A stretch of 64,000 bases of DNA from Sedimentisphaerales bacterium (GTDB lineage Bacteria > Planctomycetota > Phycisphaerae > Sedimentisphaerales > UBA12454): NCBI GenBank assembly GCA_016930635.1, contig JAFGGI010000019.1:9929-73928 (forward strand), written 5' to 3'. The notes below the pieces were generated by a model. It made no database searches. It saw only the letters and a list, made by a program, of their open reading frames with translations, and had not been told where the DNA came from. Both the position numbers and the translations under genes were made by a program. Below are positions 5,352-63,991 of the stretch, piece after piece. Every line of letters begins with the position of its first letter. The first letter of the stretch is position 1.

Positions 5352-5424
5352 TCCCCGATAGCTCAATTGGTAGAGCGAGCGGCTGTTAACCGCTAGGTCG
5401 TAGGTTCGAACCCTACTCGGGGAG
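5352..5424 (+). tRNA. tRNA-Asn (GTT)
   Basis: Manual cloverleaf: acceptor TCCCCGA/TCGGGGA, D arm GCTC/GAGC, anticodon arm AGCGG-CTGTTAA-CCGCT, T arm GTAGG-TTCGAAC-CCTAC, discriminator G. 73 nt. Confidence 0.95.
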
Positions 5425-43304: not shown

Positions 43305-43717
43305 ACATAAAATTGATAAAACAGACATGGAAAAAAGGTGCAGCAGCAGTTGAAGCGGCTATATTGTTTCCTCTGCTTTTACTGTTGACCTTTGCCATCA
43401 TTGAGTATGGCTGGCTATTTCTAAATGCCAATCTTGTAACTAATGCTGCTCGACACGGAGCACGTATTGCAGTCCTTCCGAATTCCACCAGCACTGATGT
43501 AACAAGCGCTATTTCGGATTTGATGAGCACTGCCAATATCACCGGCTACAGCGTAACAATTACTCCATCCGATCTTGCATCATTAACCGTCGGTCAGATT
43601 GTTACCGTGCAGATTACCGTGCCGTGGCAGCAAATAGCAATAATAAACAGTCCTTTTTTGCCAATGCCGACAACCGACTTGCAGGCTTCTGTCTCAATGG
43701 CAAAAGAAGGGCCGTAA
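43301..43717 (+). CDS. tadE: TadE-like pseudopilin
   Basis: KKGAAAVEAAILFPLLLLLTFAIIEYG TadE motif. ATGA overlap with cpaA. Confidence 0.8.
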   Translation: MNIKLIKQTWKKGAAAVEAAILFPLLLLLTFAIIEYGWLFLNANLVTNAARHGARIAVLPNSTSTDVTSAISDLMSTANITGYSVTITPSDLASLTVGQIVTVQITVPWQQIAIINSPFLPMPTTDLQASVSMAKEGP

Positions 43718-43779
43718 CGGCAACAAATTAATGTGGTTAATTTAATATACTTAATTTTTGAATAGGCAGGTGAGATAAA

Positions 43780-44757
43780 ATGAAATGGTCTATTGTATTT
43801 CTGGTAGCGTTAGGATTATTCGCAGCAATTTCAGCATCAGTATTAGTCGGTGCACTACGCGGACTTCCCGCCAGTGCCAGCGCCAGCGATTCATCCTCAA
43901 AAGATGAGGTGATCGTCGCTGCAAAACCACTGATCGCAATGTCTGCAATTGGTCCAAATGATATAAGCATACAAAATGTTTCGAAGGATAATCTGCCGGA
44001 AGGATACTTCTCCGAGCCCGTAGAGGTTATCGGCAGAATCCTCGCTGTATCCGTCGCACAGGATCAGATCTTAACACAGACCTGTCTTGTAAAAGAGGGA
44101 GACAGGGCCAGATTAGCAGCGGCTATCCCACACGGAATGCGTGCTATTACCATGAATTTTCCGAATACCTCCACTACTGGCGGTCTTTTGTATCCCGGCT
44201 GCATTGTCGATATCCTGGCATCTTTTCGCCTGCCGTCGAAAAATCGGGGCAAAGGCAAGGCAATATCTACAACTTTGCTTCAGGGTATTCAGGTGCTCGC
44301 TGTGGAAAACAGCTCTATAGTATCCAAAGATGATGAAGGCGAAAAAGATAAGGAAGAAGCATCTTATTCTGGCCCGGGAGGTAAAAAACTTGTAGTCACT
44401 TTAATGGTAAACTCAAGACAGGCCGAGGCCCTGCAGTTGGCCCGGGAGTACGGCACTGTATCAATTGTAATGAGAAATCCTCTTGATAAGTCACCTGTTA
44501 ACAGTGACTCAACTGTATTGAACGAAGGAAAACTGGCAAAGTCCGGCTCTGCGCTGACTCCTGCAGGCTTAACCCAGGACGGGAAAATAGACCTGTTGAG
44601 AAAAGTAGGCGAACATTCAGCACAAAATAATCTGCTGGACGAATTAGACGAAAACTCAGAACATCTCCCGCCAGAGATGTGGAATGTAACTGTGATTCGC
44701 GGCAAAGAAGTTGAAGTGCAAAAGGTTGATTCTCCAGATGAGGAAGATGACTATTAA
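43780..44757 (+). CDS. cpaB: Flp pilus assembly protein CpaB
   Basis: N-terminal TM, SAF-like region VIVAAKPL, RcpC/CpaB pattern. Confidence 0.8.
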   Translation: MKWSIVFLVALGLFAAISASVLVGALRGLPASASASDSSSKDEVIVAAKPLIAMSAIGPNDISIQNVSKDNLPEGYFSEPVEVIGRILAVSVAQDQILTQTCLVKEGDRARLAAAIPHGMRAITMNFPNTSTTGGLLYPGCIVDILASFRLPSKNRGKGKAISTTLLQGIQVLAVENSSIVSKDDEGEKDKEEASYSGPGGKKLVVTLMVNSRQAEALQLAREYGTVSIVMRNPLDKSPVNSDSTVLNEGKLAKSGSALTPAGLTQDGKIDLLRKVGEHSAQNNLLDELDENSEHLPPEMWNVTVIRGKEVEVQKVDSPDEEDDY

Positions 44758-44825
44758 AATGATAATACGTAAATAGACGCCTAATAAACTTTAGTCGTTT
44801 ATTGAGGTAAGTTGGAGATAAAAAA

Positions 44826-45230
44826 ATGGAAAATTATGAAATTATTCGTGAGTTTCTGGATTATTTGAAATTTGAAAAATACTTCTCTCAGCATACAGCA
44901 AAGGGTTATCATGCTGACCTCAAGCAGTTCTGTCGGTATATAAACAGCCGGCAGGATCACTGCTCATACAACCTCTCAGGCAATGAGCAGTCAGATTCCG
45001 CAACTGTGCAGCCAGAAATAAAGATAGAACAACTTCTTCTCTCGGCAACACCTGAGACCATCCGTACTTATATGGCTGCTTTAAATGACAAGCAATATTC
45101 GCAATCAACTATTGCCCGGAAGCTGGCAACATTGAGAAGCTTTTATAAATTTCTAGTCAAACGCGGCTACATAAGCAACAACCCTGTTACAGCGATAAGA
45201 ACACCCAGGCAGGACAAAAACTTGAAAAAT
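44826..45230 (+). pseudogene. XerC/XerD-type tyrosine recombinase N-terminal (core-binding/SAM-like) domain fragment; catalytic domain absent
   Basis: FLDYLKFEKYFSQHTAKGYHADLKQF...TIARKLATLRSFYKFLVKRGYISNNPV matches the core-binding domain. Has its own GGAG SD, and no stop before the secretin ORF. Confidence 0.7.
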
Positions 45231-45306
45231 ATAATAGCAATAGGAACGCCTGAGCAGGATAAGAACCTGAAAAACAAAAAAGATTATTATTTGGTGAATA
45301 GTACTA

Positions 45307-46811
45307 TGCTAAAAAATAAATTACTATTAAAGACCAAACGGATTGGTGCCCGGCAAATAGTCAGCGCTTTTATTTGCCTGTTTATGACTTGTTTACTTGT
45401 ATATGCCGGCAACGTGAACCTGGCTGATGAGGTCACACCGCTGGGTACTATAGTAATAAATGCCGGGGAATCAAAAATTATAAGAACACAGTTCCCGACA
45501 GTACGTGTGGCAGTTACAAATCCTAAAACTGTCGACGTGAAAGTGCTAACGCCCTACCAGCTTATGCTGCAGGGACTGGAGGTTGGGGAAACAGATGTTA
45601 TTGTCTGGTCCAAAGATGAGGGAGATCTCCAGCAATGGAAAGTCCTTGTTGTAATGAACATATCAACATACGCAGATAAGCTGAAGGAACTGTTCCCCAA
45701 ATGTTCTTTAGAGGTAAGCCAATCGGGCGGTACTCTTATAGTAAGAGGGTTGTTGAGAAGTGCAGACCAGGTCAGACAGCTTCACGATTACCTTGATAAG
45801 TCTGAAGTTACATATATCGATATGACAAGTGTTGCCGGCACTCAGCAGGTTCAGTTAGATGTGAAGGTTGCTGAGGTAAGCCGAACAATATGGCGGTCTT
45901 TCGGTGTAAATGCCCTTTATACCGGTGAAAATCACTTCGGGGGATCCCGTGTAGGTTCATCCAGCGGAGGAGCCCTGGTACCGTCAATTGGGATAGGTCC
46001 CCCGGAAGATACAGTTATTGGGACAAAGGCACCTACAAGTTATGCAATTAACTCAGATATCGTTGCAAGTTCTCTGGTCACTATTTTTGCCGGTATTCCC
46101 CGTTATAACTTTGAAGTATTTATTCAGACACTGGCTGAGAATCAATACTTAAAAATGCTGGCTAATCCGACTTTAGTTGCATTAAGCGGCGAAGAATCCA
46201 GCTTCCTTGCCGGCGGAGAGTTCCCGATACCTGTCGTCCAGGGTGGAAGCGGAGGAAGCTCTATTTCTGTTGAATACCGGGAATATGGTGTTCGCTTGAA
46301 TTTCAGACCAATTGTCCTCGGTGACGGCACTATCCGCCTGTTCGTTGCTCCTGAAGTAAGCGAACTAACCGATGTTGGAGTTATCATTGAAGGTTACAGC
46401 GTACCTTCATTATTGACAAGAAAAGTTGAAACAACTTTAGAACTTAAAAGCGGACAAACCTTCGCTATGGCAGGTTTAATAAAAGATGATATTGAGTCGA
46501 TAAGGGATCGTGTGCCTGGTCTTTCAAACATTCCTGTCCTGGGTACACTATTTCGTTCTACACGTTATAAGAAGAAAGAAACCGAACTTGTCGTACTCGT
46601 AACCGTTTCTTTAGTGGAACCTATTTCTTCATCAAATGTTAGACCTCTGCCGGGCTTTATGCATGCTGAGCCGAATGACTGGGATTTTTATATTGACGGC
46701 TATACTGAAAGTCAGGGGCCGCCAAATGTCCATCCTGAAGATGCCCAAAAGCTGAAAGAGCTTGGCATAGATGATCTCCTGGGGCCTGGTGCATGGGAAT
46801 CCTATAAATAG
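45307..46811 (+). CDS. cpaC: Tad secretin (CpaC/RcpA)
   Basis: Internal ATG followed by a signal-like MLKNKLLLKTKRIGARQIVSAFICLFMTCLLVYAG. BON-like N-domains and secretin C-domain (SGQTFAMAGL...VPGLSNIPVLGTLFRS). Confidence 0.85.
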
Positions 46812-46835
46812 AGTCGTAGAGATAAATAAGGACAA

Positions 46836-48008
46836 ATGATTACACAGACGCACAACATATTATTGCTGACAAAGGACAATTCCGCTGTAGATATGCTGCA
46901 TTCGGTTCTGGAAAAAAGCCAGAATATAGTATTGTCCGGCATATGTCAGGAATTTTCTGAACTTACTTCATATCTAAAGGATATTAAGTTTCAGACGATT
47001 ATTGTTGATATCGACCCGGATCCGCTGAGAATTCTGACCAAGGTCGGAACGATTACAGCTATGTATCCGGAACTGCGCATAGTAGTCATTTCAAACAGTT
47101 TCAGCAATGAACTGATCCTGCACGCAATGCACGCCGGGGCAAGACATTATCTGCTTAAAAGCTCTATTGAAAAAGAGCTTGAAAAAGTGCTGGGACAGAT
47201 ACTCTCTGAAGGCCGTAAAAGTGAGTCAAAACAAGGCTCAATAATATCTGTCATCCCTGTCAGCGGGGGCTGCGGCGCAACGACAGTAGCAGTCAATCTT
47301 GCCAACGAAATACGAATAGCCTCATCTGAAGAAATATTATTAGTTGATATGGACAGCTATTATGCAACAGTTGCATTGCATCTTGGAATATCCACCCAGT
47401 ACGGCATCTCAGATATCCTGTCTCATGAAGATATGATCGATGAAAACTTATTGAAATCCTGCTCATATAACTATATGACCGATTTTCATATATTGACAAA
47501 CAAGGCGATTATAAGTTCGCCTGAACTGAATCCGCCCAGGTATGACAACCTTACCTCTATTCTGGAAGTATGTAAAAATGCTTACAAATATACAGTAATT
47601 GACACTCCTTCCCGTCTGGATAAGGATGTTCTGGAAAAAATACTTGACCTAAGCGACAATATACTGGTCGTATTCCATGCCACCGTAAAAGATTTGAAGC
47701 TGGCGCAGTACCTTATATCATCTGTTCAGTTTCTTACCGCGCCGAATAAGATAATCCCCCTGGCAAATAACTTTGACAAACGAAATTCACTGATAAAACT
47801 GGAAGACTGTAAACAGGCATTGGGAATAGAGCATATCCACAGCATATGCAGCGAACCTCAAAAGGCGCTTAATGCTTTTAATCTCAGCCAGCCTCTTGCA
47901 CAATTCGCAGCCAAGTCAAAAATGCGCCAGGATCTGCAGCAACTTGCTTTAGCTCTAATAGGCGTTGAAGAACCAAATAAAAAAGAAACTATTTTGGGAA
48001 CTAAATAA
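46836..48008 (+). CDS. tadZ: TadZ/CpaE (receiver-like N domain + ParA/MinD-like domain)
   Basis: Receiver-like N-terminus. P-loop region reads VSGGCGATTVAVNLA, deviating from KGGxGKT. Confidence 0.75.
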   Translation: MITQTHNILLLTKDNSAVDMLHSVLEKSQNIVLSGICQEFSELTSYLKDIKFQTIIVDIDPDPLRILTKVGTITAMYPELRIVVISNSFSNELILHAMHAGARHYLLKSSIEKELEKVLGQILSEGRKSESKQGSIISVIPVSGGCGATTVAVNLANEIRIASSEEILLVDMDSYYATVALHLGISTQYGISDILSHEDMIDENLLKSCSYNYMTDFHILTNKAIISSPELNPPRYDNLTSILEVCKNAYKYTVIDTPSRLDKDVLEKILDLSDNILVVFHATVKDLKLAQYLISSVQFLTAPNKIIPLANNFDKRNSLIKLEDCKQALGIEHIHSICSEPQKALNAFNLSQPLAQFAAKSKMRQDLQQLALALIGVEEPNKKETILGTK

Positions 48009-49342
48009 TGGAACTAAAAGAAGGTCAAAACAGAAAATTGACCCTGCAGAGGTTAAAAGCAGAGGTTCATCGGAAGCTGCTTGAAGTATTAAATCTGAAC
48101 GAAGCCAGGAGAGTTTCTATAGAGCAGCTAAAGGAAGAATGCTTCAGCAAAGTCAGCGCTCTGCTGGACGAACAGCAGTTCCCGATATCAGGGCCGGAAA
48201 AACAACAACTGCTGCACGACATTATGGACGAGGTCTTCGGATTTGGACCTTTAGGTACACTTTTGAGAGATCCTTCCGTTAGTGATATTTTAGTGAACGG
48301 CCCGTTCCAGATATACGTTGAACGAAGCGGCCTGCTCGAACTTACAGACTTATCCTTTGCCGACGATGACCATTTGATGCGGGTGATTCAGCGAATCGGA
48401 ACTACCGTAGGCCGACGAATTGACGAAAGCACTCCAATGCTCGACGCTCGTCTGCTGGACGGCTCCCGTGTAAACGCAATTATACCCCCCCTTGCGATAG
48501 ACGGACCTGCGTTGAGTATCAGACGTTTCAGCGGAATCCCTATTGATATCAAGAAACTAATCGAAATAGAATCTATAGCTGAAGAGATGGCCTTTTTCAT
48601 CGAGGCCTGTGTCCAGTGCAAAATGAATGTCCTGATATCAGGAGGAACCGGTACTGGTAAAACTACCATACTCAACGCCCTGTCAAGGTGGATACCTCAG
48701 GGAGAACGTGTGGTAACAATAGAAGATGCAGCGGAATTAAAGCTGCAGCGGGATCACGTCGTACGTCTTGAGACAAGACCCCCTAATGTAGAAGGCGAAG
48801 GAACCATCACCCAGAGGGATCTGCTGCGAAATACCTTGAGAATGAGGCCTGACAGAATCATCATCGGTGAGGTTCGCGGTGCAGAAGCTATCGATATGCT
48901 CCAGGCAATGAATACCGGACACGAAGGCTCAATGACCACGGTACATGCCAACAGTCCGCGTGATGCTATGAGAAGACTGGAAAATATGGCCAGTCTGGCA
49001 GGAGTAAATTTCCCGCTGAAGGCAATTCGCGAGCAGATAAGCTCTGCGATAAACATTTTAGTCCATTTGCAGAGAATGACCGGCGGCCAGAGAAAAGTCG
49101 TCAGTGTTGCTGAAATAACAGGAATGGAAATGGATACGATCTGCCTTCACGATATCTTCCGTTTCGTCCAGGATGGAGTCGATGATGAAGGCAAAGCCAA
49201 AGGACATTTCGAAGCGTGCGGCGTCTGCCCTCAGATATTAAACAGGCTAAAGGAAAAAGGTATGAAAATGCCGCCCGATATGTTCCAGCACAAGATTATC
49301 GGAAAAAGTGTAAAAAAGAAAGAAGCAGTAAAAGTTCGATAA
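48008..49342 (+). CDS. cpaF: Tad pilus ATPase CpaF/TadA
   Basis: Walker A GGTGTGKTT, Asp and His boxes, IIGEVRG. Confidence 0.92.
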   Translation: MELKEGQNRKLTLQRLKAEVHRKLLEVLNLNEARRVSIEQLKEECFSKVSALLDEQQFPISGPEKQQLLHDIMDEVFGFGPLGTLLRDPSVSDILVNGPFQIYVERSGLLELTDLSFADDDHLMRVIQRIGTTVGRRIDESTPMLDARLLDGSRVNAIIPPLAIDGPALSIRRFSGIPIDIKKLIEIESIAEEMAFFIEACVQCKMNVLISGGTGTGKTTILNALSRWIPQGERVVTIEDAAELKLQRDHVVRLETRPPNVEGEGTITQRDLLRNTLRMRPDRIIIGEVRGAEAIDMLQAMNTGHEGSMTTVHANSPRDAMRRLENMASLAGVNFPLKAIREQISSAINILVHLQRMTGGQRKVVSVAEITGMEMDTICLHDIFRFVQDGVDDEGKAKGHFEACGVCPQILNRLKEKGMKMPPDMFQHKIIGKSVKKKEAVKVR

Positions 49343-49366
49343 TAACCAAAGGATACGGTAAATATT

Positions 49367-50350
49367 ATGAGTCCTGACAAATTAGTAAATGTCGTTATTA
49401 TGTTGCTCGTATTCGGGTTGATTTTCTCTGTTTGGGGAATCTGTATCTGCCTATGGATAGTACAATATCTCCGCAAGGCCCGTTCTGCCCGTGCAAAACT
49501 GGGGCTGGATGACAAGCAGGAAGGCGAAGACGAATCAAGCATGCTGAGATTATGGTTCGACTCATACGAAGAGAAAAAACCGACTAAAGCAGTAAAGAAA
49601 AAATCTCTGGCTGTATACCTGGATAAAATGATAGCCCAAACCGGCTGGCATGCTTCGGTCAGGACAATTATATTAAGAATTTTGGCAGCAATCGGTTTGA
49701 CCTCTGTAATAGCATATTTTGTAAGCGGCGATATTGTTGTAGGATTTGGTGCCGCTGCAGTAGCTATATTTATTGCATGGACTTTTATACAAAAAAGAAT
49801 TGCCAAACAAACCGCCCTGTTTGAAAGGCAATTGGCTGATGCATTAGGTATATCCTCCCGTGCACTTCGTGCGGGTCATCCGCTGGTTGAAACTTTCCAG
49901 TTAATTGCTGACGAGATAGGCGAGCCTTTAGGGGATATCTTTGCCAGAATATGCCAGGAACAGTCTCTGGGCCTTGGCTTAAAGGACTCTATACGAAATG
50001 TAGCAGAGACTACCTATAACAACGAACTGAAACTTTTTGCAACTGCGATCTCTATACAGTTTCAAAGCGGAGGCAATCTGGCCGACCTGATGGACAGGTT
50101 GGCATCTGTTATCCGGGCCAGAATGAGATTAAATCGGCGTATTCGTGTTATAACGGCACAGACTCAATTCAGCAAAAAAGTGCTGATCGCACTGCCTATT
50201 ATGCTTTTCTTCCTGCTCAATGTGGTAAATGCCGAATATATGCAGCCGTTATATAACACTGTGGCCGGCAAAGCAATGCTGATAATCGGAAGTGCCAGCG
50301 TATTAATGGGAACATGGATGATGAACCGTCTTTCTGCAATAAAGCTTTAG
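49367..50350 (+). CDS. tadB: TadB inner-membrane platform protein
   Basis: T2SSF-type domain and position in the locus. Confidence 0.8.
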   Translation: MSPDKLVNVVIMLLVFGLIFSVWGICICLWIVQYLRKARSARAKLGLDDKQEGEDESSMLRLWFDSYEEKKPTKAVKKKSLAVYLDKMIAQTGWHASVRTIILRILAAIGLTSVIAYFVSGDIVVGFGAAAVAIFIAWTFIQKRIAKQTALFERQLADALGISSRALRAGHPLVETFQLIADEIGEPLGDIFARICQEQSLGLGLKDSIRNVAETTYNNELKLFATAISIQFQSGGNLADLMDRLASVIRARMRLNRRIRVITAQTQFSKKVLIALPIMLFFLLNVVNAEYMQPLYNTVAGKAMLIIGSASVLMGTWMMNRLSAIKL

Positions 50351-50366
50351 AATAAGAAAGTATAAG

Positions 50367-51296
50367 ATGAATATTTCAAGCTCTGAAATTATAATTCCGG
50401 TACTTACATTTTTATCCGTTGTAACCCTCGGCGGATTAATTATGTTCATCCAGGCCAATAGAAAGAAATCATTGGCAATGAAAATGCTGCAGCATGAAGA
50501 TGCTCTTCCAGGACAAACCGGTGAAGGTGATGTGAAAAAGAAAGATGCTCTTCTGGAAATTTTCGAAAAAATAGGAAATTTCGTCTCCCACGGCCAGACC
50601 ACAACAACTCTTTCAGAACAGCTTATACGTGCCGGATATCATAGTAAATCCGCCTCGGCGATGTACACAGGTGTCAAAATGCTGCTGTTCTTTGTCGGAA
50701 TGGTAATGACCGCATGTATGGTTATAAATATCAACATTAATCTTATAACAAAAATGACTCTCATTTTTGTCGGCGGTGTCGTCTTCTTCTTTTTGCCTAA
50801 TGCCAAAATAATGGTGCAGTTCAAAAAACGCAGCCGTGAGATCAATCGATACCTGCCAGAGGCAATAGACCTGCTTGAAATATGCGTCTCTTCCGGAATA
50901 GGCCTGGATATGGCCTGGAACATCGTTTCCAACGAAATAAAACAGGTCTGCCCTATTCTGGCCGGTGCGATGGATATCAGCAATTTTGAAATGCATTTAG
51001 GTGCAAGCAGAGTAACCGCATTAAAACACATGGCAGCACGTACCGGCGTCGATGCTCTGTCTTCACTGGCAGCTATACTTGTTCAAACCGAAAGGTTCGG
51101 CACAAGTATCGGCTCGACACTGCAGGTATTTGCCACGTCAATGAGAGAAGAAAGAAATTTCGCCGTGGAAGAAAATGCGGAAAAAATGGCGGTAAAGCTG
51201 ATTATTCCGATGGTATTGTTTATTTTCCCGGCAGCCGTTATCACCGTAGTAGGACCGGCTGCTATTGTTATAGCAAAAGTAATGATGACACAATAA
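50367..51296 (+). CDS. tadC: TadC inner-membrane platform protein
   Basis: T2SSF-type domain and position in the locus. Confidence 0.8.
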   Translation: MNISSSEIIIPVLTFLSVVTLGGLIMFIQANRKKSLAMKMLQHEDALPGQTGEGDVKKKDALLEIFEKIGNFVSHGQTTTTLSEQLIRAGYHSKSASAMYTGVKMLLFFVGMVMTACMVINININLITKMTLIFVGGVVFFFLPNAKIMVQFKKRSREINRYLPEAIDLLEICVSSGIGLDMAWNIVSNEIKQVCPILAGAMDISNFEMHLGASRVTALKHMAARTGVDALSSLAAILVQTERFGTSIGSTLQVFATSMREERNFAVEENAEKMAVKLIIPMVLFIFPAAVITVVGPAAIVIAKVMMTQ

Positions 51297-51331
51297 TTGA
51301 CAAAAGAAAATTTAATTAAGGATATTAAATC

Positions 51332-51793
51332 ATGAAAGTATACAAAGTCATAGTTGTTTGCCTGGCTGTTATCGCCTTGGCTGGTTGTTCGGAAAACACT
51401 CAAAAGAGTCACGACACCCATGAACTTAACAGCGAGCTAATAAGGGCCTACAGCCAAATTTCTATTAACAACGCGATTGTCTCACGACACACACTGTTCC
51501 CCTACCACTTCGTTGACAACAGTGCCGAGCTGAACGAACTCGGCAAAAACGATCTGGGCGTGTTAATAAAACACTATAAGGACAATCCGGGGACATTGAA
51601 TATAACTCAGGGTGACGCTACGGATAAGATCTATCTTGCGAGAGTTACAGGTATTATCGAAAAGCTGGGTGATGCCGGTGTCGATAAAAGCAAGATGATC
51701 ATTTTAGACGGCATACAGGGCGGCCGCGGCATGCCTTCAGAAGAAGTCTTAGCTATTTTGCAGGAGGAAGTTACGAATAGTCAAAGTGAATAA
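51332..51793 (+). CDS. lipoprotein of the Tad locus (CpaD-like position)
   Basis: Lipobox LAGC at residues 17-20. No further family call. Confidence 0.5.
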   Translation: MKVYKVIVVCLAVIALAGCSENTQKSHDTHELNSELIRAYSQISINNAIVSRHTLFPYHFVDNSAELNELGKNDLGVLIKHYKDNPGTLNITQGDATDKIYLARVTGIIEKLGDAGVDKSKMIILDGIQGGRGMPSEEVLAILQEEVTNSQSE

Positions 51794-51812
51794 TTATATA
51801 AGGGATTGAGTT

Positions 51813-52475
51813 ATGAAAACTATAACGAAAAAATCAGGTTATCTCAGACAGGTTATAATAATGAGTATTATCTGCCTGGTTGGCCTGTGCGGCTGTAAGG
51901 AATCTGCACAAAAAAGAAAAATGCCAAAAAACAAACCTTTAGGCCCCGACTATTCAAATGTCAAATTCGAACAGGCTAAAGACCCTGCACCAACAGTCAA
52001 AACACTCTATGTTATGGCAGGTATTCTTCAAAATCAGGGCCAATACGCCAAAAGCGAAGCTGTGATGAAAAGTATTATTCATCAGTATCCTAAATCACTG
52101 CCTGCTTACAACCACCTGGCTCAGATGCAATTACAGCAGGGACGAAAAAAAGAGGCAATCGAAACAATGCAAAAAGGTTTGGCTATATATCCCGATGATA
52201 CAACACTGATAAACAATATCGGGATATGCTGGCTGATCTGCAACGAATATGAAAAAGCCCTGGAAATGTTTACCAAAGCAGCCGACATCGTACCTCAAAG
52301 CAAGAGATATCGCGCAAATGCCGCTTTGACATTGTCGCTGATGGAACGCTACGATGAATCATTAGCTCTCTTTGAGCAGATACTGCCGAAGAAAGATGCG
52401 ATTTATAATGTGAATGCAATTCGTAAAAATAAAATGATTGGCCCTCCTCGCTTAAGGGGAATGGAGGCCGGCTGA
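51813..52475 (+). CDS. tadD: TPR lipoprotein TadD
   Basis: Lipobox LCGC, TPR repeats, position in the locus. Confidence 0.7.
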   Translation: MKTITKKSGYLRQVIIMSIICLVGLCGCKESAQKRKMPKNKPLGPDYSNVKFEQAKDPAPTVKTLYVMAGILQNQGQYAKSEAVMKSIIHQYPKSLPAYNHLAQMQLQQGRKKEAIETMQKGLAIYPDDTTLINNIGICWLICNEYEKALEMFTKAADIVPQSKRYRANAALTLSLMERYDESLALFEQILPKKDAIYNVNAIRKNKMIGPPRLRGMEAG

Positions 52476-52517
52476 TAAATCATAAAAAATTGAATTATTT
52501 GAAGAGATATTTTTGAT

Positions 52518-52973
52518 ATGTTGTTCAGAAATATAAAACGCGAACGGAGAAAGGAAAAAAGAAACTACTGCAGCTGGCCTATCTGGTTTGCCGCTAACCG
52601 CAGCAACAGATTCTTCTACGGTGATATCATAGATTACTCCTCTGATTCTCTATCACTAATCTGCAAAAGCGGCACAGTTGCCCTGCATCCAGGCTGTATG
52701 ATAAAGATATACTTCGGCTACTCAAATTCCACCCTCAAAAAATCCCACGGCGTCGAAATGTTCTCATGCGAAGGGAATATTTACAGGGTTGACAACCTGG
52801 GCAGACAGTTTTTACATCGAAACAGCCGAATCGCCGTCAGGTTAGACCGGCAGCTGCCTTTCGCCGCATGCCGGATCAAGGCACTAAAGGTTATATTTGA
52901 GGTTATGGAAGAGCCTAACTCTAATAAACAAGAGCAGTTATGCTCAGCAGGAATAAGCACCGAGTCCGACTAA
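52518..52973 (+). CDS. PilZ-like domain protein
   Basis: N-terminal RKEKR (RxxxR) followed ~30 aa later by DYSSDS (D-x-S-x-x-S in place of DxSxxG). Confidence 0.45.
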   Translation: MLFRNIKRERRKEKRNYCSWPIWFAANRSNRFFYGDIIDYSSDSLSLICKSGTVALHPGCMIKIYFGYSNSTLKKSHGVEMFSCEGNIYRVDNLGRQFLHRNSRIAVRLDRQLPFAACRIKALKVIFEVMEEPNSNKQEQLCSAGISTESD

Positions 52974-53023
52974 TATATTGTATACTTTGTATAGAAGGAC
53001 TCCTTTTTTAGGAGGGTTGTAAG

Positions 53024-54394
53024 ATGAAGGAGCTAAAGAAAAATAAGCATTCGCAATCAAAATTCTCCATCCGCAATGGCATAGTATATGTATGGGCAAT
53101 AATTGTTTTACTGCTGCTTTTAACAACTACCGGTTTATCCCTTGATATTGGAAAAGTTATTTACGTAGGTCATCAACTGCAAAATGCCGCCGATGCTGCC
53201 GCTCTTGCCGGTGCCCGTGTGGTAAAATACAATCAGCCATTAGCCTGCCAGGAAGCTGCTGAAACCGCTCTGCAAAATGCCGCCAACGGACAAAATATTC
53301 AGCTTTCATCCGAAGATATTGTCGTAGGCCGTTACAACTTAGCAACAGGCACCTTCACTCCGACTACCATCGCTGCCAACGCTATACAGGTTACCGCCAA
53401 ACTCACTGACGATTCGGCAACAGGTCCGGTTTCTCTGAATTTTGGTTCTATATTTAATATCAACACCTGCAATCTTACCCGTACTGCAATCGCATACGGC
53501 GCCGGAGGAACCGGTGCAGGTATGATTTCCCTGGCACGTGATGGTATCGGATTATCCATCAACGGCGATATACATCTTACAGTAGAGGACGGCGCTATTC
53601 TGGTTAATTCCGAAGATGATGACGCTGTACGTATTATAGGCCAGCCGGATATTAACGCCCTTGAACTGGATGTAGTCGGTGATGTCGATGCTACCGGCGG
53701 ATTTGAATTCGACCCGAATTTCCCGGTAAACACGGGTATGTGGCCAAATCCAGACCCGCTATGTCCCGACCCGTATAATGGTGATTGTCTGCCTGAACCG
53801 GTCTGGGACCCTGATTATGATATGTCCCCTTCTTCCGGAGAAATAATAAGTGTCACCGGCGGAACAGCAGTATTTGAGCCGGGTTATTATTCAGGCGGGT
53901 TCAATTTCACCGGTGGTGATGTAGTATTTAAGCCCGGCATATATATTCTCGATGGTTCAAAAAAATCAGGATTAGTTATAGGCGGAAATACCAACGTCTG
54001 TGCAAAAGGCGTTATGTTCTACGTCGTAGGCGACGGTATTGTAAATATCGACGGCTCAGGCTCTATAGAATTAAGCCCGGTTCAGTTTGATAATGATGAA
54101 TTCTGTGACACCTCTTACAGCTATCCGCCAGGCACCGATTTTAGTTTTGAAGAAGTAGGAATTTATCAAGCTCGTACCAATACGAACGAGGCCACTATAG
54201 TCGGAACAGGTTCGCTGGATCTTAACGGAACATTATATTTTCCTGAGAATCAGCTTAATATCTCTGGTAACGGTGACGGCTTCGGCGATCAGCTCATCGC
54301 TAAAACAATTGAAGTCTCCGGCGGCGGATATATGGTCATCAGATACGACGGCAGGAACCGAACCCCCGCAAACAGGGCTTTTCTCGTCAAATAG
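53024..54394 (+). CDS. tadG: TadG-like pilus-associated protein
   Basis: N-terminal TM plus GLSLDIGKVIYVGHQLQNAADAAALAGA (TadG N-terminal motif). Confidence 0.75.
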   Translation: MKELKKNKHSQSKFSIRNGIVYVWAIIVLLLLLTTTGLSLDIGKVIYVGHQLQNAADAAALAGARVVKYNQPLACQEAAETALQNAANGQNIQLSSEDIVVGRYNLATGTFTPTTIAANAIQVTAKLTDDSATGPVSLNFGSIFNINTCNLTRTAIAYGAGGTGAGMISLARDGIGLSINGDIHLTVEDGAILVNSEDDDAVRIIGQPDINALELDVVGDVDATGGFEFDPNFPVNTGMWPNPDPLCPDPYNGDCLPEPVWDPDYDMSPSSGEIISVTGGTAVFEPGYYSGGFNFTGGDVVFKPGIYILDGSKKSGLVIGGNTNVCAKGVMFYVVGDGIVNIDGSGSIELSPVQFDNDEFCDTSYSYPPGTDFSFEEVGIYQARTNTNEATIVGTGSLDLNGTLYFPENQLNISGNGDGFGDQLIAKTIEVSGGGYMVIRYDGRNRTPANRAFLVK

Positions 54395-55373: not shown

Positions 55374-55448
55374 TAGCCCCAAGGGGATTTGAACCCCTGT
55401 CGCCGGGTTGAAAACCCGGTGTCCTAGACCTGCCTAGACGATGGGGCC
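55374..55448 (-). tRNA. tRNA-Glu (TTC)
   Basis: Manual fold of the reverse complement: GGCCCCA TC GTCT...AGGAC A CCGGG-TTTTCAA-CCCGG CGAC AGGGG-TTCAAAT-CCCCT TGGGGCT A. Confidence 0.9.
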
Positions 55449-58421: not shown

Positions 58422-59999
58422 TCATTTAAGCAACTTACGTCCGGTTACCAGTGAAAGCATCTCAGCCTTCAACAGTACTGCCCCTATTGTATATAATATC
58501 ACTGCTGTAACAACTGCCGCTGCTAACTGTACGATTCGCGGCAAAGAATGTGCTGAATTCATTACAAAAAGCGAAACAGCAAACATTACCAGGGTAATAA
58601 TCAAAGTCTTTATAAATTCAACAACCACGCCGTCAAATATTTTTCTACCGAGTTTACCTGCCAGACTTTTCAACAGTATCACAACCTGCAGATAGGAACA
58701 AAACGCCGTTGACAGTGCCAGGCCGGCAGCACCCAGAGGCCAAATAAGAATAAGATTTAAAACAACATTGATCACTACCGCAATAAATGCGCTTTGAGCA
58801 GGCTTTTTTGATTCGTGCAGTGAGTAAAATGCTCTCGTACATATCTGCTGCATAAAAAAACCCGCCAGGCCGATGGAATAAAATGTTAATATAAAGGCTG
58901 TAGAGGTTGTATCTGCTGAACTGAATTTACCTCTCTCAAAAATTAAACTTACCAGGGGTTGACGTACCAGAATCAGACCGGCCGTTGCCGGCAGAGCTAC
59001 AAACATTGCGCCCTTAATCCCTTTGGCTATAGTATTACAAAGAGCATCTATGTTATTTTTTGCAGCATCCGAACTCATCACCGGAAAAATAGCTGTCGCA
59101 AGACTTATTCCAAGTACTCCAAGAGGAAACTGATACAGCCTTTGTGAATAAAAAAGCTGTGAGACCGCACCTTCCCACATCGGATACTGTATTTCCCTGC
59201 CAAACCATCCGAATGCCGCCCCTTTCTGGGCTGAACCAGAAAACCACGCCGCTATCGAAACATCCGCTAATGTATTTATCTGTGTCACTGTCAGTCCGAA
59301 GATCATCGGGGCCATCAATAATATCATCTTTTGGAATTCTTCCGTTTTTACCTGCCAGGAAGGTCTTATCAAAACCCCATGCATTCTCAACGGTATGAAT
59401 TGTACAGCCAGTTGCACAATTCCTGCCACTAAAACTATACAAGCTACAAAATATAACTGGCTTTGTGGTTTCATCGATAAAACCCAGCCGCTGAAAAACA
59501 GCGAACCTATTATAAATATGTTTAAAATTAAGGGGGCAACAGCAGGCATTGCAAAGTGTTTATGGGCATTGAGCAGTCCTGCTGTTATTGCCACAAGACA
59601 TATCAATATCATATAAGGCAGCATCAGGCCGCTAAGCGATAACTTCATCGCTGTAGCCGGCAGCGGCGAGAAAAAAGAGTACCATCCCCAGATAACAGCC
59701 TCCCCTACCAGTACAATACAGGCCAGGATAACAAACACTACTGTAAAAGTTGTCGACGCCAGTACATCTGCTGACTTTCGGTCAATCTCAAGCTGTCGAC
59801 TGTATATGGGTATTAATGAACTCGATGCCGCCCCCTCGCCAAATAATCTTCTTGCCAGATTAGGTATCATAAAAGCGATAACCCATCCATCCATCAGCCC
59901 GGTGGCACCGAAGAAAAACGCAAAAGCCATATCCCGGCACATACCAAGTACCCGGCTTACAATCGTAAGAACAACAAGTTGTCTAAATCCCTTGAACAT
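58422..59999 (-). CDS. murJ: lipid II flippase MurJ
   Basis: N-terminal VSRVLGMCRDMAFAFFFGATGLMDGWVIAFMIPNLARRLFGEGA. 14-TM MOP family pattern. Confidence 0.9.
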   Translation of the reverse strand: MFKGFRQLVVLTIVSRVLGMCRDMAFAFFFGATGLMDGWVIAFMIPNLARRLFGEGAASSSLIPIYSRQLEIDRKSADVLASTTFTVVFVILACIVLVGEAVIWGWYSFFSPLPATAMKLSLSGLMLPYMILICLVAITAGLLNAHKHFAMPAVAPLILNIFIIGSLFFSGWVLSMKPQSQLYFVACIVLVAGIVQLAVQFIPLRMHGVLIRPSWQVKTEEFQKMILLMAPMIFGLTVTQINTLADVSIAAWFSGSAQKGAAFGWFGREIQYPMWEGAVSQLFYSQRLYQFPLGVLGISLATAIFPVMSSDAAKNNIDALCNTIAKGIKGAMFVALPATAGLILVRQPLVSLIFERGKFSSADTTSTAFILTFYSIGLAGFFMQQICTRAFYSLHESKKPAQSAFIAVVINVVLNLILIWPLGAAGLALSTAFCSYLQVVILLKSLAGKLGRKIFDGVVVEFIKTLIITLVMFAVSLFVMNSAHSLPRIVQLAAAVVTAVILYTIGAVLLKAEMLSLVTGRKLLK

Positions 60000-60042: not shown

Positions 60043-60798
60043 TCAACCATTAAACTTCTTCTGTCCCGCAACCGCTAAAACAAACGCAAAAACCTTTTGG
60101 GCCCCTGCCTCTTTTAGAGCTCTGGCACATTCATTTAATGTCGCTCCGGTTGTCTTAATATCATCAAAAAGACAGATAGTCTTATCCTTAAAATCGTGAT
60201 TTTTGCGGACGGCAAAGGCTCCTTTGACATTTTTTCTTCTCGCATACGGACTCAGACCAGCCTGTTCGCCGGTATAGCGGGTTCGAACAAGGTCTGTATT
60301 GAACGCGGCACTGCCAAAATCCAGCCTTTTAGCAATAAGTGCAGATTGATTGAATCCCCTTTTAAATCTTCTCCGCCAGTGCATCGGCACCGGCACAACA
60401 TAATCTATATTATCATTAAAATTCGCTCGCTCGATTGCATCCTGTCCGATACTTACCAGAGGTCTGAGCAGTTCAGTTCGGTCGGACAGTTTGAATTTAA
60501 TAATAAGATTTCTCAGTGCCCCCCGATATATACCAAGACAACTTATCGAATCAAAGTGAAACTCTTCCTGGTTGCATTGAGCACAGCCATTGGGCAGTCG
60601 GCCAAAAACACTCATCTCCCTGCCGCAGCGCAGACAGTGTGAATCAACAATACAAAAACTTAATTCCTGCCAGCAATCGGCGCAAAAATGCTTGTCCTCT
60701 TCACAAATATTAGTACCGCACAGCCGGCAGTAATCCTGCCAGGCAACCTGTCGCAAATTCCTGATTAAATTTCCAGTTGAGGTCAAAATCCTTTTCAC
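60043..60798 (-). CDS. comF: ComF-family phosphoribosyltransferase protein
   Basis: N-terminal Cys4 zinc-finger pairs. C-terminal PRTase motif ICLFDDIKTTGATL. Confidence 0.85.
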   Translation of the reverse strand: MKRILTSTGNLIRNLRQVAWQDYCRLCGTNICEEDKHFCADCWQELSFCIVDSHCLRCGREMSVFGRLPNGCAQCNQEEFHFDSISCLGIYRGALRNLIIKFKLSDRTELLRPLVSIGQDAIERANFNDNIDYVVPVPMHWRRRFKRGFNQSALIAKRLDFGSAAFNTDLVRTRYTGEQAGLSPYARRKNVKGAFAVRKNHDFKDKTICLFDDIKTTGATLNECARALKEAGAQKVFAFVLAVAGQKKFNG

Positions 60799-60923: not shown

Positions 60924-61700
60924 TCAGAATGGTATCTCTTTGCTGAATCTGCCTATCTTCATATCCGGCATTCTGACGTCATAGCTGTTCTTTTCCGCAC
61001 CTGCTTTATTTACATGGCCATCACCATACAAAATATTCGCTTTCTCCCTGTGTCTGAAATGCACATATTGGCCTCCTGTTTTTTCAACATAGTGCCATTC
61101 TTCAATCATTGGGCTGGTCGGACTGGCAGGAGACTGGAAAGTATTTACCTGCGCACTGTCTGTAAAAATAACTACATTACTCACGCCGCCATTATAACTG
61201 TCAAAGTCCACGACTTTTTTATGGCTCGAGTTAACTAAATCAACGAATAACTTGCTGTTAGCTCCATATGTCATCCATTTACTGCTGTATTTTGGTTTAT
61301 ATCTGCCGTCGCCATAAGGAAATGCCGGACATATCTCAACTGAATCGTACTGTTCTATATATGGGTACAGCCTGGCACGTTCCCTAAACAACTGACGCTT
61401 ACCTTCCGGAAGAGAAAAACTGCTGCCCGGCTCAAAACCAAAATACCATAATACTCCCAGCTGCCCGGCATCATCAAAAGCGTATTCGGCCAGAGGGAAA
61501 ACTTTTCGGTCATGGTCTTCAAGATACATCATGAATGCCAGACCAAACTGACCCAGATTTGAAGAGCACATCACCATCTTAGCTTGTTGTCGTGCACTGG
61601 CCATTACCGGGACAAAAATCGAAACCAGAAGTGCCATTATAGAAATCACAACTAAAATCTCTACCAGCGTAAAACCTTTATTTGTATTGTCCTTCAGCAT
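60924..61700 (-). CDS. prepilin-type N-terminal cleavage/methylation protein with H-X9-DG (DUF1559) domain
   Basis: KGFTLVEILVVISIMALL prepilin motif. C-terminal HREKANILYGDGH (H-X9-DG). Start set at internal ATG 61700, 1 nt after the upstream stop. Confidence 0.85.
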   Translation of the reverse strand: MLKDNTNKGFTLVEILVVISIMALLVSIFVPVMASARQQAKMVMCSSNLGQFGLAFMMYLEDHDRKVFPLAEYAFDDAGQLGVLWYFGFEPGSSFSLPEGKRQLFRERARLYPYIEQYDSVEICPAFPYGDGRYKPKYSSKWMTYGANSKLFVDLVNSSHKKVVDFDSYNGGVSNVVIFTDSAQVNTFQSPASPTSPMIEEWHYVEKTGGQYVHFRHREKANILYGDGHVNKAGAEKNSYDVRMPDMKIGRFSKEIPF

Positions 61701-61701
61701 A

Positions 61702-62865
61702 CTAATACCATCTCGCTGTTTGGCCCCATTGTTTTGCAAGTACTGCAAAATCTTTTAAATCGACAATTCCATCCCTGTTGATATCACCTCTGATATACTC
61801 ACCCTGCAGTAAATAATCTTCAGTCATCAGCATAATATCATAGTAATCGACGATGCCGTCTCCATCCAGATCCGCAGACCAATTGCTCATAGATTCAACC
61901 GCAAATGTCTGCAGCTCATAATCTCCATAGCCTGGAGGTATCATGCCCGAGTCAAATTCGCTTTTTCCATAATACATAACACCGTTGATAATATCAGCAG
62001 CAATCCCGCAAAAACGCCATTGAGGTTTTGGGAAACCATACGGATTGGCGTATATGTCGCCGTCTATTTCGATAACATTAAAATCGTTCGGTTCATTTGT
62101 CGGTATAATCTTAGCAACCCCGACATAACTGCCTATATAAATGTTATAATCACTGTCGATAACTATTGAATCCGACCCGGCCAGAACCACATCATTCACT
62201 ATAATCTCCGGAACAACTGTAAAATTACTATCCTGCACAAATGTATCTATTTGTCCTCTGCTTATTCTGTGGATATTCACATTGCCCAGACCGCTGCCGT
62301 CGTACATCGGCTTAAAATCAGCCAGGTAAAGATTATCAGCAGCGTCAAAACCTATCGCTCCGGAATTCCTATTGGAAACTTGTACCAATTCTGTTTCATT
62401 GCCATCCCCGGCCATCTTCAGCATATACACCGTATTGTTACTCGCAGCATCTACACCGTTGGCAAAAATCTGGTCGGCCCTGAAACGTGAAGCGATCGAA
62501 TAATAGTTTCTGGTAAGATTTATTTTTTCCTCGGCCGTTTGTCCAACAATATCGGCATATATAACCTTACTGGACAAACCTGTCGGCAATATCGCATCAT
62601 TAAAATCGGTGACAAACGCAAAATCAGCAGGGTCCCACGTAAAACCGGCTCCAGCTCCGGCAAAGATAACTATAAAAGCATCCAGCCCCGGCTCATATCT
62701 ATATAAATTCAGTCCGTTGAAAGCATAAAGACTTTCATCGCCGTAACAAAAATCAATCCTTGTAAACCCGCTGCCGCTTACATTATCAGCAGCAGGTGGA
62801 ATTTGCGCCGCCATCGAAGAACTGGTTACTATTAAAAGAACAATTATGAAAATTTTATTTATCAA
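61702..62865 (-). CDS. secreted propeller-like protein with tandem dockerin-like repeats
   Basis: Signal peptide. Recurrent DxxxN(L/I)Y(L/I) strands (DAADNLYLADF, DSDYNIYIGSY). C-terminal DLDGDGIVDYYD...DINRDGIVDLKDFAVLAKQW. Confidence 0.6.
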   Translation of the reverse strand: MINKIFIIVLLIVTSSSMAAQIPPAADNVSGSGFTRIDFCYGDESLYAFNGLNLYRYEPGLDAFIVIFAGAGAGFTWDPADFAFVTDFNDAILPTGLSSKVIYADIVGQTAEEKINLTRNYYSIASRFRADQIFANGVDAASNNTVYMLKMAGDGNETELVQVSNRNSGAIGFDAADNLYLADFKPMYDGSGLGNVNIHRISRGQIDTFVQDSNFTVVPEIIVNDVVLAGSDSIVIDSDYNIYIGSYVGVAKIIPTNEPNDFNVIEIDGDIYANPYGFPKPQWRFCGIAADIINGVMYYGKSEFDSGMIPPGYGDYELQTFAVESMSNWSADLDGDGIVDYYDIMLMTEDYLLQGEYIRGDINRDGIVDLKDFAVLAKQWGQTARWY

Positions 62866-63635
62866 ATTTCCGCTTTCCTTCTTCTTAAAAATACAGCTCC
62901 CGCAAGCATAGCAAATATCGTCGCCGGCTCCGGTACAACATCTGCAAAACCTGCTACATCTGCGATACCACTGTCGTCGGCAATATCAGTGACACGAACA
63001 TACATTATCCAGTCTAAAGGTTCACTCAGCCCTATTGCATTTGATATATCAACCTGTGCTCCGCCGCAGCCGCCGAGAAAATCCGCTTCCACCTCCCCCG
63101 GTAGTCTATTCATATATGGTACATCTGCAGGTGTAGCGTGAAAAAAATTTCCCGCCGATGCCGTGTAGGGATAAAGGGCATCCGCATAAGTATCCGCTAT
63201 TTCATAAAATAAAACTCCATCCTGGCTGACTTCTATTTTGGCAGGTTCAAAAAATGCTCCGGCAATTCTGCCTTCATTTTCATAATCACATGCAAAAAAA
63301 CTGTTTCCAAATACAAGCAGGTCGGTGCCATACTCAACATCTAATGGATTATTCATAACCTGATGGTCAAACGCAATTGTTATCGACCCGCCATTGCCCA
63401 GGCTGACTACATCAGTTTCTTTATAAGGAGCCGACGTTATTGATATCGGCCAGGTGTATCCTTCATAGCTGTCCTCGGCGGGCGGTGCACCGAGAACAAC
63501 TGAAGGATCATTATAATTTGGCTCAGCCCCGAAGCCCTGGCTGAAGTTCACAACTGAATCGGCATAAGGTGTGGCTTTTGATATCATACAACACATAAAC
63601 ATAACCATCAAAAAAACAACTGCCTGACATCTCAT
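62862..63635 (-). CDS. PEP-CTERM-anchored secreted protein
   Basis: Signal peptide. C-terminal VPEPATIFAMLAGAVFLRRRK (PEP-CTERM sorting signal). AGGAGG SD. Confidence 0.8.
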   Translation of the reverse strand: MRCQAVVFLMVMFMCCMISKATPYADSVVNFSQGFGAEPNYNDPSVVLGAPPAEDSYEGYTWPISITSAPYKETDVVSLGNGGSITIAFDHQVMNNPLDVEYGTDLLVFGNSFFACDYENEGRIAGAFFEPAKIEVSQDGVLFYEIADTYADALYPYTASAGNFFHATPADVPYMNRLPGEVEADFLGGCGGAQVDISNAIGLSEPLDWIMYVRVTDIADDSGIADVAGFADVVPEPATIFAMLAGAVFLRRRKAEI

Positions 63636-63685
63636 CTTTTCATTCCTCCTAAAGCTGAACCAGGTAAATATAATTAAAAAACAAT

Positions 63686-63720
63686 AAAAAAAACCGCCGT
63701 TCCCGCAAAAGGAACGACGG
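63686..63720 (-). terminator. intrinsic terminator (riboswitch expression platform)
   Basis: On the minus-strand RNA, CCGUCGUUCC/GGAACGGCGG stem (one G-U) followed by U8. On the plus strand the same position would be a C-A mismatch. Confidence 0.75.
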
Positions 63721-63761
63721 CTTTAATCTTCCACAAATAACACCCATACAAGGTATATTCG

Positions 63762-63961
63762 CTGGTGTTCCTTACGCGAGAACTCTCAACAAACTACTGA
63801 TTACAGACAGGTTTTCTGACTTGCGTCTCGACGAAAGAACCCTTCCCATTCAAAAAGAACAGTGGGACAATTTCTCTCGGCCTTTTCGATACAACTCGAA
63901 ACAACGCTTACAGCGGCGCGACCGCCACGGATTTTCACCGTGTTCCCTTTTCTGCAACCAG
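63762..63961 (-). ncRNA. cobalamin (B12) riboswitch
   Basis: The minus strand reads AAGGGAACACGGTGAAAATCCGTGGCGGTCGCGCCGCTGTAAGC ... GTCCCACTG...ATGGGAAGGG ... GCAAGTCAGAAAACCTGTC (B12-box-like). Possible P1 CTGGT/ACCAG. Confidence 0.85.
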
Positions 63962-63991
63962 ATATAATTTTTTCAAAGAACAATTTGTAAA
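63962..63991 (-). promoter_or_regulatory. sigma-70-type promoter for the riboswitch transcript
   Basis: The minus strand reads TTTACA-18 nt-TTATAT immediately upstream of the riboswitch 5' end. Confidence 0.45.

Follow-up and report, generated by a model that had tools for sequence, protein, structure and literature searches.

A cobalamin-riboswitch cassette in Planctomycetota linking a predicted BtuH-type corrinoid binder to a dedicated DUF1559-type pseudopilin

Introduction

In Bacteroides, extracellular vitamin B12 is handled by a riboswitch-controlled relay of BtuJ, BtuH, BtuG and BtuB. BtuJ belongs to the DUF4465 family of secreted β-jelly-roll B12 scavengers, which are widespread and riboswitch-linked (PMC13398666). 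Published homologues of BtuH come from Bacteroidota and three Firmicutes (PMC8941943, PMC13616437); a 2022 description credited the BtuH-type domain with no structural homologues, and a 2026 review still regarded it as essentially an invention of gut Bacteroidota. Here, we describe a locus in Planctomycetota that encodes a protein whose closest known counterpart is BtuH (BtuH1, BtuH2 and the BtuH domain of BtuG1, or 'BtuGH', of Bacteroides thetaiotaomicron; PDB entries 7BIZ and 8BLW). The locus lies on the minus strand near the right end of a 64,000-nt stretch of contig JAFGGI010000019.1 of a Sedimentisphaerales bacterium (assembly GCA_016930635.1), referred to below as the window. It consists of a cobalamin riboswitch followed by genes A, B and C (Table 1).

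An initial interpretation of the window from its letters alone (the sequence-only reading) had proposed that the riboswitch controls a cell-surface device for corrinoid capture or hand-over. This proposal is supported by the homology of A to BtuH and by the conserved linkage of riboswitch, binder and pseudopilin. The cassette is a variant, in function, of the Bacteroides relay. Since A agrees with BtuH in fold, sequence and key motif but is not a lipoprotein encoded together with btuB, it is a homologous BtuH domain in a different delivery context. No description was found in the searchable literature of a BtuH-type domain well outside the Bacteroidota, where it proves to be very widespread, or of an obligatory partnership between a BtuH domain and a dedicated H-X9-DG/DUF1559 pseudopilin.

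Riboswitch and leader

The Rfam covariance-model scan of the whole window gave a full-length match to the cobalamin riboswitch family RF00174, for which the gathering score is 31.5 bits. This confirms the minus-strand riboswitch of the sequence-only reading, together with its core strings (GGGAACACGGTGAAAATCCGTGGCGGT..., CCCACTG...GGGAAGG and AGTCAGAAAACCTGTC), which are all present. It is the only RF00174 match in the 2.45 Mb genome and thus marks the sole detectable cobalamin-riboswitch unit of the host. The first ~35 nt of the Rfam match pair poorly and overlap the promoter-like hexamers, so that the riboswitch RNA proper probably starts near 63955; for the same reason the RNA itself is described fairly well by the earlier extent of 63762-63961. 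The TTTACA and TTATAT hexamers separated by 18 nt stand upstream of the riboswitch as had been described. A consensus promoter scan lists an overlapping TTTACA-16-AATTAT pair, and promoter-like sites in this AT-rich region are in modest excess (27 found, 19.7 expected from shuffling). A promoter at this position is plausible from its sequence.

An intrinsic terminator follows the aptamer at a distance of 65-100 nt, again in agreement with the earlier description of a hairpin with one G-U pair and a U-run. In the terminator scan its core is CCGUCGUUCC/GGAACGGCGG, GC-rich and with a single G-U pair, and the hairpin dominates the minimum free energy fold of the leader (-55.2 kcal/mol, z -2.96). 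Of 19 loci examined, 18 have an equivalent hairpin and U-run, and the sequence of the stem varies in both arms. The conserved intrinsic terminator is predicted to provide the expression platform that a cobalamin riboswitch needs. Beyond it, AGGAGG stands 9 nt ahead of the ATG of gene A, as previously read, and the tight packing of the three genes was confirmed from the open reading frame (ORF) table, with a 4-nt overlap (TTGA) between A and B and a gap of 1 nt between B and C. Each gene is single-copy in the host genome. Family scans matched all of the labels first given to the products, namely PEP-CTERM for A, the dockerin tail for B, and N_methyl, DUF1559 and H-X9-DG for C.

Gene A encodes a BtuH-type domain

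The sequence-only reading held that none of the three products resembles a known B12 protein, which is wrong for gene A. Pfam scans of the window protein, of 36 family members and of ten distant representatives gave no family over the A domain. In structural comparisons, the BtuH domains score 4-5 Z units and ~15 identity points above all carbohydrate-binding-module (CBM)-like matches. On the predicted model, the A domain has the fold of the BtuH2 C-terminal domain in preference to that of generic β-sandwiches, so that the comparison with BtuH suggested from the sequence did return a match. When the domain profile (alignment A5) was compared with the PDB, chain 7biz_A was the sole match below an E value of 0.01 (E 1.3e-3, profile positions 39-215).

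The hidden Markov model (HMM) alignment contains five motif blocks common to the A family and BtuH2. The invariant N111 and the conserved F113 of an 'FGNxF' motif align with chain residues N299 and F301, which correspond to Asn399 and Phe401 of BtuH2 (BtuH2 numbering is the SEQRES index plus 100, an offset that was verified on the five residues His476, Tyr510/Trp511, Glu406 and Asp522). In BtuH2, Asn399 coordinates the Na/Ca site by which the phosphate of B12 is held, and Phe401 packs against the corrin as a stacking residue. The remaining BtuH2 contacts (Gln333, His476, Tyr510, Trp511 and Trp577; Glu406, Asp522, Ser582 and Glu584) were compared in the HMM alignment only, which stops at chain position 470; the positions of His476 and Trp511 are not conserved there, and that of Tyr510 is taken by the F/W of a 'DFTxPVDP' motif. 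Conserved acidic residues are found near the C-terminal strand of the A domain. A retains that part of the B12 site which is best conserved, and corrinoid binding is predicted. Taken together, fold and, more weakly, sequence indicate that A is a remote homologue of BtuH's B12-binding domain and not a mere analogue.

Gene A differs from BtuH in its delivery. It lacks a lipoprotein signal and the PKD stalk, carrying instead a Sec signal without a lipobox and a PEP-CTERM anchor, and btuB is missing from the operon and its surroundings. The C-terminus (residues 234-254) matches TIGR02595 with 23.4 bits (cut-off 16) and combines the PEP motif, a transmembrane helix and a basic tail; the genome encodes two PF09721 exosortases. 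In comparison with BtuJ, A has no DUF4465 match and its structural matches are to BtuH and not to BtuJ. To equate BtuH with DUF4465 would be wrong: DUF4465 is the BtuJ family, and the host genome lacks it.

Conservation of the cassette

At the order level, homologues of A were found in 31 of 60 related genomes, spread over eight families. An RF00174 match lies upstream on the same strand at all 32 places where A occurs in this set, and a C-type pseudopilin lies directly downstream in every locus that reaches far enough. A species-level scan (one genome per species, query alignment A3) found 429 relatives of A; linkage was counted in the best 80 of these, part of whose genomes are shared with the order-level set. 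The 80 loci are labelled as Sedimentisphaerales, Anaerohalosphaeraceae, Phycisphaerales, Tepidisphaeraceae, 'Pirellulales', Kiritimatiellae and Verrucomicrobia. Upstream sequence of at least 1.6 kb was available for 62 loci, all of which have the riboswitch (nhmmer matched 57, and Infernal the remaining five), and a C-type pseudopilin scoring above 100 bits was present in 71 of the 72 loci with at least 900 nt downstream, where it mostly overlaps the end of A. The trio of riboswitch, binder and pseudopilin recurs in over 80 species. Because the riboswitch is the sole RF00174 match in the genome and the linkage recurs in every related locus examined, the association of riboswitch and genes is far beyond chance. 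The conserved synteny that the sequence-only reading had proposed as a check is therefore seen for riboswitch, A and C in all related loci; its fourth part, the propeller B, recurs only in the clade of the window. Anaerohalosphaeraceae bacterium U12dextr (loci L089 and L141) has two separate riboswitch-X-A-C cassettes (X is described below); its record is not labelled as a metagenome-assembled genome, and it is apparently a cultured carrier.

Gene C encodes a pseudopilin of a distinct DUF1559 subfamily

The product of gene C resembles the DUF1559/H-X9-DG proteins of Planctomycetota, Verrucomicrobiota and Lentisphaerota (PF07596, TIGR04294) in its leader, its N-terminal motif and its H-X9-DG motif. 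It is unlike typical members in being short, in its marginal family scores, and in forming a distinct orthologous subfamily with one copy in each cassette. The prepilin methylation motif is matched by PF07963 (30.5 bits, cut-off 21.2) and TIGR02532 (27.6 bits, cut-off 16.3), and its residues F10, L12 and E14 are invariant among 19 orthologues (alignment A4). PF07596 matches only the N-terminal 44 residues (24.3 bits against 23.3), where the DUF1559 motif reads C..N.RQ...A...Y, and TIGR04294 scores 19.5 bits against 19. Among the orthologues H217 is nearly invariant and D227 and G228 are invariant, as are W85, C124, P125, Y138, N139, F179, D181 and N186. The language-model (Atlas) neighbours of C are N_methyl/DUF1559 clusters (0.98). 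Against a profile of its own orthologues C scores 254.6 bits, and the next of about 20 pseudopilin paralogues in the host scores 94.7. The C profile matches the PDB in the pilin N-terminal helix only. The match of C to GspG, the major pseudopilin of the type II secretion system (T2SS), is likewise confined to the N-terminal helix and stays below the equivalog cut-off (TIGR01710, 32.7 bits against 88.85). Complex prediction in which C was the partner, run for the A domain, for B and for C's globular part, scored 0.12 (mark 0.32); it was run without controls and has no bearing on binding.

No paper that assigns a function to the wider DUF1559 family was found in the searchable literature, and none that connects DUF1559 to cobalamin or, in the sense meant here, a pseudopilin to a cobalamin riboswitch. 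The sequence-only reading had hoped for a functional handle on DUF1559, and the strict tie of one C subfamily to a B12 riboswitch and a binder gene provides it.

Gene B and the alternative protein X

Like BtuG (DUF5074, PF16819), B is a secreted β-propeller encoded beside a BtuH-like binder under a riboswitch. Unlike BtuG, it is predicted to have six blades and not seven, carries a dockerin tail and has no BtuB to cap. Its predicted fold is the generic NHL/SMP30 type; B has no Pfam DUF5074 match, and no BtuG entry is among its top structural matches. These comparisons gave no specific similarity to the BtuG propeller. The dockerin tail matches PF00404 at residues 360-381 (26.2 bits against 22.9), with a second repeat at residues 330-345. 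B was compared with two propellers of a Binatia operon (described below), to which it is unrelated (probability below 1%), and with a 547-residue protein in the same operon slot of another genome (G028), in which the dockerin tail alone matches. B is restricted to the clade of the window (four relatives and about 28 metagenomic proteins) and, being confined to that clade, is not part of the conserved core of the system.

The usual layout elsewhere is riboswitch, X, A and C, in which X is a PEP-CTERM protein of ~190 residues without a Pfam family (for example L031:2358-2927 on the minus strand and L026:1260-1799 on the plus strand; alignment A6). The Atlas model of X resembles DUF4430-bearing and DUF5074-associated Bacteroidota proteins with TM-scores of 0.57-0.63, which is a lead only, and a search of the PDB with the X-domain profile found nothing. 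Four loci encode X and the A domain as one fusion protein, with X at the N-terminal end. X is probably a second corrinoid-binding module. In the loci with X, A carries a dockerin-like tail ending in CTWxC. In the clade of the window X is absent, A bears the PEP-CTERM anchor and the new gene B bears the dockerin tail. Constant across these architectures are one PEP-CTERM protein, one dockerin-tailed protein and the pseudopilin.

The A-domain superfamily beyond the cassette

At a threshold of E<=1e-3 an exhaustive profile search returned 3,848 cluster representatives, and at E<=1e-30 it returned 447; several of the metagenomic contigs with A-domain proteins are too short for gene context to be judged. 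One metagenomic protein fuses the A domain to DUF4465 (186 bits), a family that has been shown experimentally to bind B12 (PMC13398666). In a Binatia metagenome-assembled genome (GCA_026415395.1; locus L055, 4215-12308), a riboswitch of 91.6 bits is followed by genes for a propeller-like protein, an A-domain protein, a TonB-dependent receptor, a propeller-repeat protein, a BtuF-type binding protein and a BtuC-type permease. The two propeller-like proteins (ScyD/E-like, 461 residues; YVTN-repeat, 429 residues) flank the A-domain gene and the receptor. This arrangement recalls the BtuG/BtuH layout of Bacteroides in an unrelated phylum. On another contig a 1003-residue protein that combines a propeller with an A domain is encoded directly behind a riboswitch of 94 bits.

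The NCBIfam model NF033170, 'LIC_13355 family lipoprotein' of Leptospira, matches 15 of the 36 members of alignment A5 (best E 1.5e-16). The sole functional paper on LIC_13355 describes an adhesin-like protein and does not mention B12; the LIC_13355 family may be a corrinoid binder. PF17653 (DUF5522), found on one cluster of structural neighbours, is a 48-position motif unrelated to the A domain.

Host physiology and secretion machinery

The host genome (64 contigs, 96% complete) encodes two methyltransferase-type corrinoid proteins and five or six B12-binding radical S-adenosylmethionine enzymes. CbiC, the sole marker of corrin-ring synthesis that was searched for, was not found. This agrees with corrinoid auxotrophy; should the auxotrophy behind the missing CbiC be real, these corrinoid-dependent enzymes would need imported corrinoid. 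The genes for a BtuF/BtuC/ATPase set stand on a separate contig and have no riboswitch. Of the 31 relatives that bear the cassette, 12 draft genomes gave no detectable TonB-dependent barrel, and six of these are 94-99% complete.

The host has at least 14 ATPases of the T2SS/type IV pilus type, six secretins, two prepilin peptidases and two exosortases. The count of ATPases and secretins is strikingly high for a genome of 2.45 Mb, which also has ~11 DUF1559-like and ~20 pseudopilin-like ORFs. The window itself contains a complete Tad/Flp-type pilus cluster (42738-54394, plus strand), ~6.5 kb from the cassette and on the opposite strand. It encodes an A24 prepilin peptidase, RcpC/CpaB, a secretin, a TadZ-like ATPase with a receiver domain, a TadA/CpaF ATPase, two TadB/C platform proteins, a tetratricopeptide-repeat protein and a TadG-like protein. 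Because Flp pilins differ from the GFTLVE class, this cluster is probably not the machine that assembles C. The secretin ORF of the cluster (44826-46811, plus strand) has an N-terminal match to a phage-integrase SAM-like domain (PF02899, 61 bits) before its secretin domains; this unusual combination may be a mis-chosen start or a fusion.

Proposed mechanism and alternatives

We consider it reasonably probable that the cassette serves corrinoid scavenging and is switched off when B12 is sufficient, with C preferred as an import element of pseudopilus type. When B12 is scarce the aptamer would be empty, no terminator would form, and A, B and C would be made. A would be exported by Sec, fixed in the envelope through its PEP-CTERM/exosortase anchor, and would capture free corrinoid at the conserved FGNxF and acidic site, whose counterpart in BtuH2 binds the phosphate of the nucleotide loop via Ca/Na. 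B would be a clade-specific accessory, filling the slot held in most relatives by a dockerin-tailed A domain and a small PEP-CTERM protein of DUF4430-like fold; B, or X elsewhere, would act as an accessory binder or hand-over partner. C would be cut by prepilin peptidase and inserted in one of the many T2SS or type IV pilus-like machines. In the reading we prefer, the binder complex would be carried by a short pseudopilus with C as its tip or shaft. The pseudopilus would pass the corrinoid via a secretin to the periplasm, taking the place of BtuB (a TonB-dependent transporter), and the unregulated BtuFCD-type ATP-binding cassette importer would move it across the inner membrane. When B12 is replete, the aptamer would be bound, the terminator would form and transcription would halt before gene A.

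An import role is favoured for C because C holds the operon position that BtuB has in Binatia, because many carriers lack a detectable TonB-dependent barrel, and because import by pilus and secretin has a precedent in DNA uptake and the fibres on planctomycete crateriform structures bind dextran (PMC5394234).

To our knowledge, competence pseudopili and type IV pili are the only established case in which a pilin machine brings a ligand that is large and polar into the periplasm by way of a secretin. They may serve, by analogy only, as a mechanistic model for C. They differ from the proposed system in that the ligand here would be a vitamin on accessory binders and not DNA on a minor pilin, and in that the cassette encodes no retraction ATPase or secretin. 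A broader version, in which B12 crosses the outer membrane of Phycisphaerae and some Verrucomicrobiota by extension and retraction, through a secretin, of a cassette-specific H-X9-DG/DUF1559 pseudopilus with docked B12-binding proteins and not on a TonB transporter, and in which the DUF1559 family would comprise substrate-specific uptake pilins, seems to us doubtful.

Several observations weigh against the main interpretation of the cassette. The sequence link to BtuH is marginal (E about 1e-3), and the dockerin-type sub-profile A3 failed to recover 7BIZ by sequence. Of the corrin contacts of BtuH2, His476, Tyr510, Trp511 and Trp577 are not clearly conserved in A, and the A domain is ~65 residues shorter than that of BtuH2; the length and the contacts His476, Trp511 and Trp577 are the reason why A is graded as a remote homologue. 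The promoter call is a consensus match only, and inspection of the leader fold for an anti-terminator gave no convincing pairing. The genome has one TonB-dependent receptor, 15 kb from the BtuF/BtuC/ATPase set, so that a classical outer-membrane step is possible. Filament assembly of C, its contact with A or B and the direction of the pseudopilus are hypothetical.

The direction is where the main rival to an import role arises. C might work outwards, as a cargo-specific minor T2SS pseudopilin that recognizes folded A and B in the periplasm and pushes them through a secretin to the surface, with corrinoid entering through a porin or a TonB receptor. T2SS tip pseudopilins contact their substrates, the N-terminus of C is like that of T2SS pseudopilins (the GspG match and pilin helices), and A and B are secreted proteins that need to cross the outer membrane. 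The genome offers many T2SS-type ATPases and secretins together with its one TonB-dependent receptor, and the strict synteny would be accounted for just as well if each cargo were paired with a pseudopilin of its own. PEP-CTERM proteins, however, are thought to be sorted by exosortases, of which two are present, and not by the T2SS; the 12 cassette-bearing relatives without a detectable TonB-dependent barrel and the Binatia binder, which has no pseudopilin and adjoins BtuB, also speak against outward work, which we judge to be unlikely.

C might alternatively not assemble into a filament at all, and act as a periplasmic protein anchored in the inner membrane that hands corrinoid to BtuF/BtuCD or tethers the dockerin-tailed protein. 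The Pfam name of the family, SBP_bac_10, goes back to a time when DUF1559 proteins were taken to bind solutes, and invariant polar motifs (YNYN, H-X9-DG) in the ~220-residue globular part could form a pocket. A tether would also suit the position of the dockerin-tailed protein, which is always encoded immediately upstream of C whichever domain bears the tail. The conservation of the prepilin leader in all orthologues argues instead for a pilin assembly pathway; we regard the periplasmic role as improbable. That A is a generic β-sandwich adhesin or glycan binder, with the riboswitch coupling surface remodelling to B12 status, is very hard to reconcile with the lead of the BtuH matches over the CBM-like ones (4-5 Z, ~15 identity points), the fusion of the A domain to DUF4465 and its place in operons with btuB-btuFC elsewhere, the riboswitch linkage at 62 of 62 loci and the mapping of the conserved GNxF motif on the B12 site of BtuH2.

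Neighbouring genes

Downstream of gene C are genes for a ComF-family phosphoribosyltransferase (60043-60798) and for MurJ (58422-59999), both on the minus strand. In at least 12 of 20 loci of relatives ComF comes next after C, across gaps of only 19-46 nt; the gap in the window measures 125 nt, and the other loci have no ComF. It may share the transcript of the cassette, and hence its B12 regulation; alternatively, its position may simply mark where the ancestral insertion took place. That a competence-type ComF protein should accompany a pseudopilin is curious. Upstream, just past the right end of the window (L001:1746-2465, minus strand), a 239-residue coiled-coil protein with a C-terminal membrane helix is encoded on the strand of the cassette, and its ORF stops ~30 nt upstream of the promoter-like hexamers. 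ORFs of 201-249 residues hold its position in close relatives and in locus L026. A search of sequencing runs matched the locus only in the sediment metagenome from which it probably derives, with no RNA run listed.

Table 1. Coordinates of the cassette and of other features in the window
Feature	Position	Strand	Description
Promoter-like -35/-10 pair	63962..63991	-	TTTACA (63991-63986), 18 nt, TTATAT (63967-63962)
Cobalamin riboswitch aptamer, RF00174	63789..63992	-	77.9 bits, E 1.7e-17, model 1-189
Intrinsic terminator	63680..63724	-	Hairpin 63724-63690, 15 pairs (G-U allowed), then U-run
Ribosome-binding site AGGAGG and ATG of gene A	63635..63651	-	Sequence reading and ORF table; ATG at 63635
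Gene A	62862..63635	-	257 aa: signal peptide, BtuH-type domain (predicted) ~22-233, PEP-CTERM anchor 234-254
Gene B	61702..62865	-	387 aa: signal peptide, six-bladed β-propeller (predicted) ~18-326, two-repeat dockerin-like tail ~330-381
Gene C	60924..61700	-	258 aa: prepilin leader GFTLVE, divergent DUF1559 globular part, H-X9-DG (H217...D227 G228)
tRNA gene	5352-5424	+	RF00005, 71.7 bits
tRNA gene	55374-55448	-	RF00005, 61.2 bits

Implications

If the interpretation is correct, the BtuH-type domain would be a large superfamily without a Pfam family in Planctomycetota, Verrucomicrobiota and Binatia that includes LIC_13355 of Leptospira, and the annotation of corrinoid scavenging in sediments and soils would change. 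The system would be categorically new only if vitamin import by a pseudopilus were demonstrated. The DUF1559/H-X9-DG proteins are among the largest uncharacterized families of Planctomycetota and Verrucomicrobiota, and the C subfamily would supply a ligand and a regulator for their study, with growth at limiting B12 as the phenotype. How planctomycetes take up large polar molecules is a long-standing question, which would become directly testable because many carriers lack a detectable TonB barrel and the pseudopilin stands in the place that BtuB has in another phylum. Should import on a pseudopilus prove true, it would provide a molecular basis for the fibre-associated uptake of macromolecules reported in Planctomycetes.

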